Below are positions 25,875 to 41,507 of a stretch of 53,046 nt of DNA, piece after piece. Origin of the DNA: Patescibacteria group bacterium. GTDB taxonomy: Bacteria > Patescibacteriota > Minisyncoccia > Phycocordibacterales > UBA2100. The stretch is from contig JBBUDH010000005.1 in the NCBI GenBank assembly GCA_038057405.1, positions 1-53,046 on the forward strand. The letters are read 5' to 3'. Position 1 is the stretch's first letter. Each line of letters opens with the position of its first letter. Position numbers and translations under genes: made by a program. Below the pieces are notes generated by a model. It saw only the letters and a list, made by a program, of their open reading frames with translations. It was not told where the DNA came from and searched no databases.

Positions 25875-26443
25875 TGATTGCCATCATCCTGATAATTCGG
25901 CTGTCTTTCTTCGATGCCCGCGCGGTGGTTCGCGAGGCGCGTGAGCGCGTAGAGGAGCGAAGAGAGCCTGTTGGCGTATGCGCGACTCGATTCGCTGATG
26001 AGGCGCTCGCCCGATTCGTGCAACGTGACAAGACGCCGCTCGGCGCGCCGTGCGACCGCCCGTGCGATGTCGAGCCGCGCGGAGAGCTCGGTGCCTCCCG
26101 GCACGAGGAACGTCTTGATGGGCGGCATCTCCCCTTCAATTCTATTTATCATTACCCCGAGCATCTCAACGCTCGAGAGCGGTACTGATTTCGGTGCACC
26201 TGCAACCTCGGCTTGCAGTGTGAAGAGGTGGTCCTGCACATCGTGCAAAATCATTTTCATGCGGCGTTCCTGCACTAGAAAATCCTCCGGGCAACCCGCC
26301 TTGCACCACCCGACGAGCGTATTGAGTTCGTCGAGCATTCCCAAACATTCAAATATCGGGCTCGATTTGGAAGCACGCTTCCCCGGGCCGGAATCAAAAA
26401 GTTTCGTTGTCCCTCCGTCCCCTTTCCCAGTGAACAAGGCCAT
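25871..26443 (-). CDS. PduO-type ATP:cob(I)alamin adenosyltransferase
   Basis: The N-terminus MALFTGKGDGGTTKLFDS carries the signature T-G-x-GD-x-G-x-T, and the protein has a helical-bundle length. Confidence 0.9.
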   Translation of the reverse strand: MALFTGKGDGGTTKLFDSGPGKRASKSSPIFECLGMLDELNTLVGWCKAGCPEDFLVQERRMKMILHDVQDHLFTLQAEVAGAPKSVPLSSVEMLGVMINRIEGEMPPIKTFLVPGGTELSARLDIARAVARRAERRLVTLHESGERLISESSRAYANRLSSLLYALTRLANHRAGIEERQPNYQDDGNQ

Positions 26444-26505
26444 GGAGTAACTATAGCAAACCGCCCTTCAACATCTGTGCGGGCGAGTGAACGAAGCTAA
26501 AACCT

Positions 26506-27078
26506 CTACTTGTGTAAAGTCTGCAGATCCGCCTCATATTTACGAATAAGGTTCCGTCTCCATTTCTCAGCCTCCCACCAAGTAATACCGAAAACTCCTA
26601 CTGTAAATACGGACTGGAAAAAACCTAAACCATCTAGATCGATAAACCTTACCGGTTGGCTAATAGAAAGAATCTGGGCAAGTAACGAAACCATGAGCAA
26701 AACAAATCCTGTTACCGTGTCGGCCTTTTGACTAGCGAAATTCTTACCAATTTCCAGATTAAACCCCAATCGTGCCCCAGACATTTTTGCCATTTCCGCC
26801 GGAGAAAATTTCATAACTCCTCTTATCATAAAAAATGAGGAGAGACCTGTGACGAGCAAAATGTAGAGCTGAAACATGGGTTGGGTGAGTAATCCGAACA
26901 GCAAACTAACAAACTGACCAAAGCCCATAACATCACCGACGGCTTGGTAGCGAAATATTTTATGAGCCCCGTAAAACCCCGCGGCAGCTACAATCAGTAC
27001 AAAAGGAAGCCAATATCGACGGAGAATATCTTTCAAATTAAGCACAGAGGCAGTATATCTCGCTTGGAACCGCCACAA
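26506..27078 (-). CDS. membrane protein (about 190 aa), function unknown, in a patch that looks AT-richer
   Basis: TTG start in the ORF track, so the start is uncertain. Four to five hydrophobic segments. Composition differs from its neighbours by eye. Confidence 0.55.
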   Translation of the reverse strand: MWRFQARYTASVLNLKDILRRYWLPFVLIVAAAGFYGAHKIFRYQAVGDVMGFGQFVSLLFGLLTQPMFQLYILLVTGLSSFFMIRGVMKFSPAEMAKMSGARLGFNLEIGKNFASQKADTVTGFVLLMVSLLAQILSISQPVRFIDLDGLGFFQSVFTVGVFGITWWEAEKWRRNLIRKYEADLQTLHK

Positions 27079-27132
27079 AAGCCGCTAACTAGCGGCTTTC
27101 AACATTCATAACGTTCACAATATTCACTTCTG

Positions 27133-27214
27133 TGCCCGGGACAGGAATCGAACCTGCACGCCTTGCGGCCTTAGCACCTCAAGCTAAGTAGTCTACCAAT
27201 TTCTACACCCGGGC
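27133..27214 (-). tRNA. tRNA-Leu: tRNA-Leu (anticodon GAG), long variable arm
   Basis: Acceptor GCCCGGG/CCCGGGC, anticodon arm TTAGC-TTGAGGT-GCTAA, long variable arm, T-loop GGTTCGATTCC. Confidence 0.9.
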
Positions 27215-27226
27215 ATTATTAAAGCT

Positions 27227-27904
27227 TTACAGCTTCTCCCCCACTGTACTCAATATTCGCTCTACTTTCAATCTTTTTCGAGACAAGCTAATGACACGCC
27301 TCTTGTAGTACATGGCGTGGAGTATTGGCAAAGAATCCTTCTTCGCATACTTAAGCTGATATAAAACTCCTCTGGGAGCTCCGCACGTAATGTGCCCTCT
27401 GGCACCGGTACGTTTATAAACCTCCGCTTGCAACCAATCAATAAATGTTCTGCTAGCTGAGGCAAATATCGTGTAGAACATATAGCTCGAACGCCAACGT
27501 GGATCCCAATAGGAATGCGAGCAACCGTCTCCGTCATACACGCCGCGCAGAAAATCCCAAAAATATTTAGGTGGAATCTTTATTGCGCCAATCGTTTTCG
27601 ATTTCGCGGGTGTCAACCCGATAGATAGAAGGAAGTTGTAAAAAAGAACGCTCCTAAATTGAATGCGCAGGGCTTTTTTCGTCGTCGATGATTTCTTGAC
27701 GGTAATCCGAAAATCAACGCGTACACACCGATTGAAATTCTCAAGCTGCTCGCGATCGACAGAAGTTAAATCAATAAGTGTCGACTTCGAGGCTAGACAG
27801 CCGTCGGTCGCCAGTAACCCAATAGCGTATGCAAGTTCCGCCGACCACGCAGTATTGATTCTTCTTTTCGCATTAAATCCGGGCTTTGGACCTCTCTTCC
27901 CCAT
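27227..27904 (-). CDS. free-standing double-motif LAGLIDADG homing-endonuclease-like protein
   Basis: Two LAGLIDADG motifs are present: LAYAIGLLATDGC and FLRGVYDGDGC. The N-terminus is basic. The stop lies 12 nt upstream of the tRNA-Leu 5' end. Confidence 0.85.
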   Translation of the reverse strand: MGKRGPKPGFNAKRRINTAWSAELAYAIGLLATDGCLASKSTLIDLTSVDREQLENFNRCVRVDFRITVKKSSTTKKALRIQFRSVLFYNFLLSIGLTPAKSKTIGAIKIPPKYFWDFLRGVYDGDGCSHSYWDPRWRSSYMFYTIFASASRTFIDWLQAEVYKRTGARGHITCGAPRGVLYQLKYAKKDSLPILHAMYYKRRVISLSRKRLKVERILSTVGEKL

Positions 27905-27970
27905 CCGCTCATTCTACCATGCCTCAAGGTAATAGCGTCTACCAATTGTTGATAAATAAAAAAACGCCGG

Positions 27971-28420
27971 TTATTCTGCTTTTGCTTCCGTCGCAGTTTC
28001 CGCCTCGGCGACAGCCGGCGCTTCTTCTTTTGCGACAACTTTCGTGACTCCCGATACGTTGACCATCATACGGGTACGGCGCAATTGACGACGTGCCTCG
28101 CGGGCGACTTTGTCGCGGATGAAGTAGAGTTTTGCGCGGCGGACGCGGGAACGCTTCACGAGCTCGATTCTGTCTATCATCGGCGAGTAGATGGGATATA
28201 CCTTCTCAACACCCACGCCGGAGGCAACGCGGCGCACGGTGAAAGTGCCACCCGCTTCTGTGCCGTGTTTGCGTGCGAGTACGAGGCCTTCAAATGCCTG
28301 AAGACGAGTCTTGCCCTTCTCTTCGATTTTCTGCCAGACGCGCACGGTATCTCCCGGCCGGAGGTCGAGATTCTTGCGCGCTTCCATGTCTACAGGTGAG
28401 ACTTTGACTGCGTTTTTCAT
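27971..28420 (-). CDS. rplS: 50S ribosomal protein L19 with an Ala/Glu-rich C-terminal extension
   Basis: LRPGDTVRVWQKIEEKGKTRLQAFEGLVLARKHGTEAGGTFTVRR. Confidence 0.95.
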   Translation of the reverse strand: MKNAVKVSPVDMEARKNLDLRPGDTVRVWQKIEEKGKTRLQAFEGLVLARKHGTEAGGTFTVRRVASGVGVEKVYPIYSPMIDRIELVKRSRVRRAKLYFIRDKVAREARRQLRRTRMMVNVSGVTKVVAKEEAPAVAEAETATEAKAE

Positions 28421-40094: not shown

Positions 40095-40748
40095 TCATGC
40101 AGGCAAGCGCGAACGTATGATAGCTATCGTCTCGCGACCGCTCTTGTCGTACAGGTCAGCGACGGGCACGTTTACATGCGCCATGCCCCGATATTTCTTG
40201 AGGCGGTCACGCAGGAGTGCGGGAAAACACCGTTCGAGTGTTTCTTTCTGCGTCTCACCCCGTTTTTGAACGTACATGCCGTTCCAAACCACCGGCTTCG
40301 GCTGCTCAAAAAACTTTTGTATCATTGTATCAATATACTTCTCGCCCGCTTCGAGATTTACGATGAGGCAATTTTCTTGCAGCCACTGCGTCGTCGGCTT
40401 CTCAAGGTAGATGACGCTCCCTGTCGTATCAAATACGAGATTCCGGTCGGTATCAATAAAATCCACTTTCGTGTGCTTCGCTTCCGAGTCGAGATACTCA
40501 CGCTCGCGCACCCCATACGTGGGACTGTCGGGAAGCCCGAGCCATTCGGCAATTTCTTCCATCCCTGAAAAACCGAGAGATTTTATTATTTCTTTGTCCA
40601 CCTGATACCAGTCGAACCCGAACTGGTCGCGGAGCACCTTGGAGCGATAGCTCTTGCCCACGTTCGACATGCCGACAAAGGCGATACGGAGCGAATTATC
40701 CGCAATATGCGCATCGTATTCGGCCTGCGTAAGCGGTGTGAGGTCCAT
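40095..40748 (-). CDS. P-loop NTPase/kinase-fold protein (shikimate-kinase-like size), function unknown
   Basis: Walker A is IAFVGMSNVGKS. The start is trimmed to the ATG at 40748 because the longer ORF runs through tRNA-Ser. Confidence 0.65.
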   Translation of the reverse strand: MDLTPLTQAEYDAHIADNSLRIAFVGMSNVGKSYRSKVLRDQFGFDWYQVDKEIIKSLGFSGMEEIAEWLGLPDSPTYGVREREYLDSEAKHTKVDFIDTDRNLVFDTTGSVIYLEKPTTQWLQENCLIVNLEAGEKYIDTMIQKFFEQPKPVVWNGMYVQKRGETQKETLERCFPALLRDRLKKYRGMAHVNVPVADLYDKSGRETIAIIRSRLPA

Positions 40749-40830
40749 TCGCGCAACATTACAATATTTTTGTGAAATGCAAAAACCGGATATGCACCGT
40801 CGTTTTTGGTATGCATCTATCACACAACTT

Positions 40831-40918
40831 TGGCGGAGGGGGTGAGATTCGAACTCACGAGGCCTTGCGACCTGGCGCATTTCAAGTGCGCTGGAATGAA
40901 CCGCTATCCGACCCCTCC
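40831..40918 (-). tRNA. tRNA-Ser: tRNA-Ser (anticodon TGA) with encoded CCA
   Basis: Acceptor GGAGGGG/CCCCTCC, anticodon arm GCGCA-CTTGAAA-TGCGC, long variable arm, T-arm GTGAG-TTCGAAT-CTCAC, then G-CCA. Confidence 0.9.
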
Positions 40919-40922
40919 CTCT

Positions 40923-41408
40923 TCAATCGCTTACAGTACCACTGAGCCAGCTATTTTCTAAGTAGTGTTCTTCCGCGTGGCAATTAGGGCAAATTAGTTC
41001 GAGATTGTCCATTTCATTGTGCGTTCTGTTCCTGTCCTTGTGATGTATATGCAAAATCTCGAGTTTAGCGAAACCGCATCGCTCACACTTCTTTCCCCGT
41101 TTTGAGATGAGGCGTAATTTTATGCTTCTCTGGTCTTTTACCTTGTCCCTTGGACTGCCAATCTTATATTTAATCCCAGCCCGGTTCTTATTCGCACATG
41201 TTCTGCTGCACGTTTTCTTGTTTGCACTGGCAAGAATTAACTTTCCACACATCACACACGGCCTTTCCTTTCGATTAGAAATCCCGTAACAGGCGAGGCC
41301 GCAAAATAATCGTCCTCCGTTTTTCTGCATTTCAATTGGCCTCCTGTAGATGGGTTTCTTGCAAACGAGGCATACCGTATTTGGATTTCTTTTATGTGAC
41401 TCGGCCAC
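40923..41408 (-). CDS. HNH endonuclease with N-terminal Cys-rich zinc-finger-like repeats
   Basis: The HNH core is HIHHKDRNRTHNEMDNLELICPNCHAEEH, and several CxxC pairs lie upstream. The stop is 4 nt from the tRNA-Ser 5' end. The gene looks AT-richer by eye. Confidence 0.85.
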   Translation of the reverse strand: MAESHKRNPNTVCLVCKKPIYRRPIEMQKNGGRLFCGLACYGISNRKERPCVMCGKLILASANKKTCSRTCANKNRAGIKYKIGSPRDKVKDQRSIKLRLISKRGKKCERCGFAKLEILHIHHKDRNRTHNEMDNLELICPNCHAEEHYLENSWLSGTVSD

Positions 41409-41507
41409 TCGTCCAGTATACCACTCCTTAGTCGAGGGTGACCCTTATACTCACCTTCTTCCGTCTTGCCTCAAATAGGTGTTGCAAAACGCGATACAAT
41501 AACCGCA

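Follow-up and report, generated by a model that had tools for sequence, protein, structure and literature searches.

A 53,046-nucleotide (nt) stretch of DNA from a Patescibacteria group bacterium (assembly GCA_038057405.1, contig JBBUDH010000005.1), hereafter the window, carries two genes for unrelated nucleases that each lie directly 5' of a tRNA gene, and we analyzed whether and how these nuclease–tRNA pairs recur elsewhere. In the first pair, a free-standing, double-motif LAGLIDADG gene encoding 225 amino acids (27227..27904; Pfam LAGLIDADG_3) precedes an intact class II tRNA-Leu(GAG) gene (27132..27214). In the second, a free-standing HNH gene of the homing type, with a GTG start and encoding 161 amino acids (40923..41408; Pfam HNH), precedes an intact class II tRNA-Ser(UGA) gene (40831..40918). 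Each nuclease gene is the longest open reading frame (ORF) in its region. The tRNAs were called with ARAGORN and confirmed with Rfam (RF00005; 44.4 bits for tRNA-Leu and 50.8 bits for tRNA-Ser), and within both pairs the two genes share the minus strand. Reading the sequence confirmed the spacing reported in a first-pass annotation of this DNA: the LAGLIDADG stop codon (TAA, 27229-27227) lies 12 nt before the tRNA-Leu start at 27214, and the HNH stop codon (TGA, 40925-40923) lies 4 nt before the tRNA-Ser start at 40918. Both nuclease genes had also been judged AT-rich by eye, and their GC contents were indeed 46.0% (LAGLIDADG) and 44.2% (HNH), compared with 54.9% for the window; 600-nt segments below 46% GC were found only at 26301-27401 and 40901. 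A sequence scan of the window found no terminator-like site between ORF and tRNA in either pair and, since the gaps are only a few nt, read-through into both tRNAs is unavoidable. ARAGORN called seven tRNAs in the window, and the five others have ordinary genes upstream and no nuclease gene.

The LAGLIDADG protein scored 25.2 bits against Pfam LAGLIDADG_3 (cut-off 22.5) and matched PHROG 4645 'endonuclease' (E=2e-25). Motif 1, LAYAIGLLATDG, contains the acidic residue D34 (LAYAIGLLATD34G), and motif 2, FLRGVYDGDG, contains the acidic residue D126; D34 and G35, together with D124-G127, were invariant among 26 LAGLIDADG homologs. When the LAGLIDADG profile was compared with the PDB, both motifs aligned with 2dch (I-Tsp061I; E=1e-5). 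The same structure was the best Foldseek match (E=1.7e-11, TM-score 0.65/0.71) of an AlphaFold 2 (AF2) model of the protein (predicted local distance difference test [pLDDT] 89, predicted TM-score [pTM] 0.87), with further fold matches to intein endonuclease domains, WhiA, I-AniI, I-DmoI and I-SceI. Model and fold matches support a pseudo-symmetric two-domain fold (alpha-beta-beta-alpha-beta-beta-alpha). The family comprises 2180 clusters at 90% identity with conserved length, and 60 of 225 alignment columns are invariant. The gene thus appears to encode a monomeric double-motif homing endonuclease; such enzymes cut long DNA targets of about 18-22 bp, and a candidate target is suggested here by the tRNA-Leu-like block described below.

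The HNH protein scored 28.0 bits against Pfam HNH (cut-off 21.4) and matched PHROG 1271 'HNH endonuclease' (E=4e-16). Two Cys4 zinc modules lie in its N-terminal part and the HNH motif in its C-terminal part; this His-Asn-His motif is flanked on each side by a zinc-binding Cys pair, as in a beta-beta-alpha-metal core. H122, H123, N135, H144 and H148, as well as C108, C111, C140 and C143, were invariant in 21 HNH homologs, so that the catalytic residues of both nucleases are preserved across the homologs compared. The AF2 model was of moderate confidence (pLDDT 78, pTM 0.40) and gave weak local matches to Cap5, T4 endonuclease VII and Gme HNH domains (E >=0.04); a PDB sequence search with the HNH profile found no close relative. 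This family comprises 971 clusters at 90% identity, again with conserved length, and 41 of 161 columns are invariant. The best 120 matches in each of the two families were 57-88% identical to the window proteins, and in annotations, most members of both appear as hypothetical proteins or as generic HNH endonucleases.

We then examined the pairing at 80 loci per family, taken from GTDB species-representative genomes, and annotated the tRNAs in them (L001-L160 below are nuclease loci, L380-L459 are IMG/VR contigs and L460 is the BF23 tRNA region). A same-strand tRNA-Leu(gag) gene followed the LAGLIDADG homolog in 79/79 evaluable loci, with a stop-to-tRNA gap of -36 to +34 nt, and tRNA-Ser(tga) followed the HNH homolog in 78/78 loci (gap -64 to +54 nt); both families had a median of 3 nt. 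The gene rplS, encoding ribosomal protein L19, lay upstream of the LAGLIDADG gene in 76/80 loci, and in the window it occupies 27971..28420 (minus strand; Pfam Ribosomal_L19, E=2e-33), while the gene neighborhoods of the HNH gene varied around a constant tRNA-Ser partner. Recurrence in 79/79 and 78/78 loci of other genomes rules out chance adjacency, and the invariance of the partner in the same loci led us to reject generic landing at tRNA flanks. The arrangement is therefore one of two specific nuclease–tRNA pairs, not a general attraction to tRNA flanks, and the suggestion of the first-pass annotation that tRNA 5' flanks are preferred landing or retention sites did not survive this comparison, each family being tied to one tRNA species in every locus examined.

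In 8 LAGLIDADG loci (L021, L024, L030, L039, L054, L064, L072 and L076) and 26 HNH loci (e.g., L086, L091 and L100), the stop codon was located inside the tRNA gene, 1-64 nt deep. RNase P cuts tRNA 5' leaders, and at these loci its cut would strip the stop codon and may leave a non-stop mRNA. Both nuclease-linked tRNAs of the window are class II, with a long variable arm, and the five tRNAs without a nuclease upstream are class I; this is probably a coincidence, as phage relatives of the HNH gene precede many class I tRNAs.

Occupancy of these sites was patchy. Because rplS lies upstream of the LAGLIDADG gene in nearly all loci, it could be used as an anchor that is independent of the nuclease. 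Among the 80 closest rplS loci, chosen irrespective of the nuclease, 72 had an evaluable tRNA-Leu(gag), and a full LAGLIDADG gene was present in only 11 of these and absent from 61. At the unoccupied loci other than L197, tRNA-Leu lay 15-570 nt after rplS or was inverted. Even the closest relatives were split: L161, whose L19 is 93% identical to that of the window, is empty, and L162 (94%) is occupied. At L197, only a fragment of the LAGLIDADG gene is left (residues 141-202). For the HNH family, tRNA-Ser(tga) loci were collected by means of a 37-nt pattern from the window tRNA-Ser, and the HNH gene preceded the tRNA in 22/58 evaluable loci and was missing from 36/58. Decayed copies were found here as well, one truncated (L284), one frameshifted (L299) and one reduced to a 34-residue N-terminal remnant (L289). 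Empty tRNA-Ser sites held no trace of the HNH ORF and had varied contexts, several lying directly after another tRNA.

A separate observation concerns the inverted tRNA-Leu genes. In at least 13 rplS-anchored genomes, all without the nuclease, tRNA-Leu(gag) was on the opposite strand, 90-1400 nt from rplS (L175, L176, L179, L183, L184, L186, L201, L205, L210, L215, L218, L219 and L225); these loci represent local inversion or rearrangement at the same hotspot.

Composition and descent were examined in the same way. The nuclease genes were AT-richer than their flanks in 98% of loci (81 LAGLIDADG and 101 HNH loci), with a mean excess of 6.8 and 7.4 points, respectively. Their GC deficit rose with host GC with a slope of 0.66, which indicates only partial amelioration. 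Descent was assessed from pairwise identities against one host marker, L19. LAGLIDADG identity correlated with host L19 identity (r=0.40; 0/500 permutations as high) with large scatter: nucleases of hosts 85-87% identical in L19 could be only 52% identical, whereas those of hosts 60-70% identical in L19 reached 82%. On these values, the history of the LAGLIDADG gene may have been partly horizontal. Neither ORF lies inside an intron or intein, both being separate from rplS and the tRNAs, and an E-value-based Rfam scan returned tRNAs only. A site that is fixed but only patchily occupied, copies in decay, active sites that remain intact and a foreign composition are jointly the signature of a free-standing homing endonuclease gene (HEG). 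The first-pass annotation had suggested that the two genes were selfish, free-standing nucleases, and this suggestion is upheld by their AT-shift relative to their hosts and their presence or absence among close relatives; they are neither universally conserved at these loci nor host-like in composition.

The tRNA sequences themselves proved to be poor phylogenetic markers at this depth in Paceibacteria: the pairwise identities of tRNA-Leu, -Val, -Arg and -His correlated with host L19 identity at r=0.0-0.3 (L001-L239). Two further comparisons were uninformative. For nuclease-driven tRNA turnover, occupied and empty pairs had nearly the same tRNA-Leu identities at equal host distance. For co-transfer of the tRNA, the partial correlation between tRNA and nuclease identity was 0.11, and control tRNAs showed the same near-zero relationship to host distance.

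A consensus scan predicted a sigma-70-type promoter, TTGAAA-17-TACAGT, within the last LAGLIDADG codons (27243..27271, minus strand), 29 nt before tRNA-Leu, its -35 hexamer coinciding with codons L212-K213. Sites with at least 10/12 promoter matches preceded tRNA-Leu in 32% of loci compared to 1% of shuffled sequences, and the codon for Leu212 was TTG in 74%, compared to 5-35% at other conserved Leu positions. The promoter block recurred in occupied loci, and some empty sites had it too. A block of ~66 nt, homologous to the codons for LSRKRLKIEKMLAIVGEQL*, was kept at the empty sites L165, L174, L182 and L194, and the same block was present at the empty sites L161, L169 and L172 with a spacer 1 nt shorter and a broken reading frame. 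Such sites look like places where the nuclease gene was deleted and the promoter was kept for tRNA-Leu; other empty tRNA-Leu sites had unrelated, native-looking promoters. With a promoter of its own in the 3' end of the LAGLIDADG ORF, tRNA-Leu would be expressed independently of the nuclease transcript. Separately, 19/79 loci had a TTGACA hexamer at -13 to -8 relative to tRNA-Leu(gag), with a small hairpin ahead of it; it is not present in the window, was unseen before other tRNAs and was found at both occupied and empty loci (L003, L004, L009, L011, L017, L162, L177, L181, L199, L238 and others). It was rejected as a tRNA-Leu promoter, because its -10 element would fall within the tRNA.

At the other end of the cassette, a local alignment revealed a fragment resembling tRNA-Leu(GAG) from the D-loop to the anticodon loop (AATTGGTAGACGCTATTACCTTGAGG; 27922..27947, minus strand). 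Short tRNA-like fragments went undetected in the E-value-based Rfam scan, and custom local alignments with shuffled sequences and control tRNAs were used instead. The window block had a local score of 23, compared to 11.4 +/- 1.4 for shuffles (z=8.4), and five other tRNA types aligned to it gave no signal. Scores of at least 15 were obtained in 90% of 80 loci, in a constant register corresponding to tRNA positions 13-43. The core of the block, including the anticodon loop CUUGAGGU, was at least 90% conserved across 77 distinct upstream regions, and at L170 colinearity with tRNA-Leu extended to the LAGLIDADG start codon. The block was missing from empty sites and was alike in all occupied hosts, regardless of the host's own tRNA-Leu; accordingly, it moves along with the cassette and is subject to selection. 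It may be what remains of a split tRNA target (or its left half), it may be an operator covering the promoter of the nuclease gene, or it may serve the cassette as a portable homology arm. The tRNA-Leu type nearest to the block, GACGTACTACCTTGAGGTGGTAG, was found in 14/61 empty loci and in 0 occupied ones, and the 'naive' tRNA-Leu(GAG) gene type is GGTAGACGTACTACCTTGAGGTGGTAG.

Between rplS and the nuclease gene, occupied loci shared one layout: a T-run, then AATTGGTAGACGCTATTACCTTGAGGTGATATAAT, ~7 nt and the ATG. In the window, a T-rich tract after the rplS stop codon (27951..27964, minus strand) forms the left-hand boundary of the conserved cassette, probably as the tail of the rplS terminator; L237 and L238 have clear hairpin and T-run terminators at this position. 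A predicted extended -10 promoter (TGgTAGAAT; 27905..27919, minus strand) lies 6 nt upstream of the LAGLIDADG ATG, and its consensus TGATATAAT was 80-99% conserved at the same position. In fact, neither nuclease gene has a Shine-Dalgarno sequence, and in both an extended -10 element (TGnTAnnnT) lies 6-7 nt ahead of the start codon, which suggests leaderless transcripts for both.

In the HNH cassette, directly upstream of the GTG start, a predicted extended -10 promoter (TGgTATACT followed by GGACGA; 41409..41423, minus strand) was apparent, and TGTGGTATACTGGAyGA{{|}}GTG was conserved in nearly all of the 80 HNH loci, with the -10 element 6 nt from the start. The start codon was GTG in 52/73 genes, and codon 3 was GAG in 61/70 genes, compared with 27-48% at other conserved Glu positions; this dual bias indicates DNA-level constraint on the HNH 5' end. 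From the HNH start to tRNA-Ser, promoter-like sites were no more common than in shuffled sequences in most loci, including the window, and clear promoters before tRNA-Ser were seen only in AT-rich lineages with longer spacers. A candidate sigma-70 promoter embedded in the HNH 3' end (TTAGAA-17-TACTGT, 40933-40961) was rejected, as sites with at least 9/12 matches were as frequent as in shuffles and the codon bias at L150 was weak. The near-invariant extended -10 element probably drives an HNH–tRNA-Ser co-transcript from which RNase P would free the tRNA and thereby set the 3' end of the mRNA. The first-pass annotation had proposed co-transcription and RNase P processing for both pairs: this is the most economical reading for the HNH pair, in which most loci have no separate tRNA promoter, and tRNA-Leu, with its own predicted promoter inside the ORF, would not depend on it for expression.

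Traces of tRNA-Ser were also found at the 5' edge of this cassette. The HNH gene 5' end in the window (GGACGAGTGGCCGAGTCACATAAAAG; 41389..41414, minus strand) is weakly similar to tRNA-Ser positions 1-26 in local alignment. Across loci, the median local score of the HNH 5' end against tRNA-Ser was 12, compared to 8-9 for five control tRNAs, and the alignment began at tRNA-Ser position 1-3 in 48/87 loci. In addition, a truncated tRNA-Ser 5' end, running from position 1 to position 11-26, was located 25-85 nt upstream of the HNH gene at L084, L095, L098, L109/L255, L121, L138 and L142. Most of these fragments had the canonical D-arm GTGGCAGAGCGG, from which the D-arm of the intact downstream tRNA-Ser differs. 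These loci look like resident tRNA-Ser genes interrupted by the cassette.

Taken together, these results lead us to propose, with a probability of roughly 0.7, that both genes are free-standing homing endonuclease genes belonging to Paceibacteria-wide families, each tied site-specifically to one tRNA gene. In element-free genomes, the nuclease would cut at the conserved tRNA gene or at the gene's 5' junction, and repair from the occupied allele would copy the cassette in. The tRNA gene would provide a homology arm and, for the LAGLIDADG element, rplS would provide another; it is the probable left arm. Because the cassette separates the tRNA from its former upstream sequence, it must supply tRNA expression. 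The LAGLIDADG cassette would do so through the sigma-70 promoter within its last ~20 codons, and the HNH cassette through its extended -10 promoter, giving a leaderless nuclease–tRNA co-transcript from which RNase P releases the tRNA. The tRNA-like sequences upstream would either be left over from tRNA genes that the insertion split, or act as operators that resemble the target and overlap the promoter of the nuclease. After invasion, the element would persist, decay or be lost, sometimes leaving a promoter behind for the tRNA. The tRNA-derived fragments ahead of the nuclease genes suggest that the target is the tRNA gene itself and that this gene is not merely a neutral landing pad.

Several observations weigh against this proposal. 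The rplS-LAGLIDADG-tRNA-Leu synteny in 76/80 loci and the positive correlation between host and nuclease identity also fit one ancient insertion followed by many losses. Because the tRNA-Leu-like block is the same in all hosts, it is no fresh footprint of each invasion. The similarity of the HNH 5' end to tRNA-Ser was not significant for the window copy (z=1.0), and clear truncated tRNA-Ser fragments were found in only ~8/95 loci, with a few matches in the reverse-strand control too. The cleavage sites envisaged for both nucleases are candidates read from the adjacent tRNA and the tRNA-Leu-like block, and all promoters and leaderless starts have been predicted from consensus sequences in a lineage that is uncultivated. 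The test for a resistant tRNA-Leu allele was not significant in a matched sample (p=0.096) and was confounded by phylogeny in the full sample; moreover, tRNA-Leu is identical in the occupied L162 and the empty L166 and L172, and a simple model of resistant tRNA alleles is therefore not established.

The most serious competitor is that each family entered once in a Paceibacteria ancestor and has since descended vertically with many losses, with no present-day homing and with retention because deletion would remove the tRNA promoter. The synteny around rplS is what such a history would leave, as are the tracking of host L19 identity by nuclease identity (the nearest nuclease relatives of the window belong to its nearest hosts), the uniform tRNA-like block upstream and the promoter embedded in the ORF, exactly whose 3' piece some empty sites keep. 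Neutral retention does not explain, however, why catalytic residues and full length have been kept over 2180 and 971 clusters, and related hosts with very divergent nucleases, as well as distant hosts with similar ones, are not expected from vertical descent. Composition has also stayed foreign, with amelioration only partial, and the HNH gene is always found with tRNA-Ser in variable neighborhoods and has relatives in phage tRNA clusters. We therefore regard a single ancient insertion as unlikely.

The first-pass annotation had also raised the possibility that the nucleases were domesticated, here for processing, regulation or protection of the tRNA gene. A precedent exists in WhiA, a LAGLIDADG protein turned regulator, which is among the fold matches of the window protein, and a host role would suit the strong conservation (60/225 and 41/161 invariant columns), the strict pairing with one tRNA and the tRNA-like operator candidate that overlaps the promoter. 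Yet most close relatives lack the genes although they have the tRNA in the same place (61/72 and 36/58), decayed copies exist, the composition is AT-shifted and, unlike in WhiA, the catalytic Asp and His residues are kept; domestication thus seems improbable to us. Less credible still is a non-specific safe harbor, in which any tRNA 5' flank would be tolerated since RNase P trims the transcript, and nucleases would accumulate there without targeting. Two unrelated families with the same geometry in one window, and phage HNH relatives preceding many tRNA isotypes, are compatible with it, but the partner never varies within the close family (79/79 and 78/78), the five other window tRNAs are free of nucleases and the fragments upstream of the nuclease genes are tRNA-specific. 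We consider it very improbable, and site-specific homing into the two tRNA loci remains the reading we prefer.

A more far-reaching form of tRNA-specific homing is possible, although we hold it only tentatively. Here, a self-restoring cassette would enter the tRNA gene itself, bringing a replacement 5' part and/or a promoter, such that an intact tRNA is rebuilt downstream and an orphan fragment is left upstream. If this were true, two unrelated families would have converged on a way to enter a tRNA gene that is essential and single-copy while leaving the host alive, and the orphan fragment would have been selected as a nuclease promoter or operator, or as a portable homology arm. The element, acting as the tRNA promoter, would be hard to delete cleanly, resulting in addiction-like retention, and the conflict could drive the unusual D-arm and anticodon-stem variants of tRNAs in Paceibacteria.

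Two further ORFs adjoin the tRNAs of the pairs. Directly 3' of tRNA-Leu, an ORF of 190 amino acids (26506-27078, minus strand) encodes a membrane-protein-like product; at 43% GC it is about as AT-rich as the LAGLIDADG gene, and the low-GC region at 26301-27401 takes it in as well. It had no match in Pfam, PHROG or NCBIfam and no homolog in 80 related loci, and may be a strain-specific insertion at the tRNA-Leu 3' flank. Near the second pair, a mechanically called ORF (40095-40880, minus strand), encoding a P-loop protein with no Pfam match, overlaps tRNA-Ser by 50 nt; the real start of this gene is probably an internal Met near 40745. Other genes in the window neighborhood are ruvX, ruvA, rpsT and pilM; together with rplS and the best L19 matches, they assign the window to a Kaiserbacteria-like bacterium of the Paceibacteria, in the Patescibacteria/CPR.

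Free-standing homing endonucleases at tRNA genes are already known, mainly from T-even and T5-like phages. What is new here is their occurrence in chromosomes of the Paceibacteria, part of a very large radiation of uncultivated bacteria, in two unrelated families, with promoter overlap with, or donation to, an essential tRNA and a tRNA-derived 5' edge; in the limited literature collection that we searched, no description of nuclease–tRNA pairs in Patescibacteria was found. The strict pairing provides an annotation rule for large families, and each family is a candidate set of natural meganucleases for which the neighboring tRNA hints at the target. They also offer a concrete case of a selfish gene that overlaps or supplies the promoter of an essential tRNA, and a testable system for mobile-element invasion of single-copy essential RNA genes in minimal genomes.

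The two families differ in their relatives elsewhere. LAGLIDADG relatives in IMG/VR reached at most 39% identity (a partial match) and ~31% near full length, and were near tRNAs in 2/80 loci. HNH relatives in IMG/VR reached 50% identity and lay in tRNA-containing regions in 72/80 loci; a tRNA directly followed the match in ~40 of the 80, its isotype varying. Contigs of 350-450 kb among these HNH relatives had a tRNA-Ser(gga) 11 nt after the match. In GenBank phages, the HNH protein matched hegA (F-TflIV) of BF23 with 38% identity over residues 69-145; hegA lies within the tRNA gene region and carries the annotation homing-like endonuclease. The F-Tfl enzymes of T5 are nicking enzymes. Like the HNH gene, F-TflI/II/IV of T5/BF23 (AJ604530) belong to a related HNH subfamily and lie inside a tRNA gene region. 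These proteins are, however, larger than the HNH protein, and in BF23, hegA comes after tRNA-Ile with no tRNA directly downstream, whereas the HNH family described here resides in Paceibacteria chromosomes and has tRNA-Ser(UGA) as its constant partner.

Among phage systems, SegB of T4 is comparable to both genes and is the best-documented precedent. According to its abstract, the 27-bp site that SegB recognizes includes a tRNA gene motif, the conserved T-psi-C stem-loop, and the enzyme causes its own gene and the adjacent tRNA genes of T4 to be inherited preferentially (PMC2330249). Also from that abstract, it resembles both genes in being a free-standing nuclease among tRNA genes that is absent from related genomes (PMC2330249). 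It differs in belonging to the GIY-YIG family, in residing in a phage rather than a chromosome and in having no fixed position 5' of one tRNA. The abstract mentions neither an embedded tRNA promoter nor an upstream tRNA-like block, and it reports demonstrated cleavage by SegB (PMC2330249), while cleavage by the nucleases described here is a prediction.

For the LAGLIDADG protein, the closest known parallels are I-Tsp061I and I-DmoI, from archaeal ribosomal RNA (rRNA) introns, which share its monomeric two-domain fold and acidic residues. LAGLIDADG genes also occur in rRNA insertions of candidate phyla radiation (CPR) bacteria, in a study concerned with rRNA genes (PMC11270868). In all of these, as would be the case here, a conserved stable-RNA gene is targeted. 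The LAGLIDADG genes of rRNA introns and insertions are, however, removed from the RNA, whereas the gene in the window is free-standing before an intact tRNA, and the Rfam scan found no intron in the tRNA-Leu region.

Two further systems bear on the tRNA-derived sequences. I-TevI represses itself via an operator resembling its own homing site. Similarly, a target-like sequence overlaps the nuclease promoter in the LAGLIDADG cassette (27905-27947), where an operator is a candidate role; in contrast to I-TevI, the block could instead be a split-tRNA remnant or just part of the promoter. Mobile endonuclease ORFs of mitochondria, such as that at Allomyces atp6, carry a replacement for the displaced end of the host gene. 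Both these ORFs and the cassettes described here comprise a partial copy of the host gene, a nuclease ORF and an intact host gene, and in both the essential gene stays functional. The host gene in the Allomyces type is a protein gene with a duplicated 3' end, whereas here it is a tRNA gene, and the orphan piece corresponds to its 5' or middle part.

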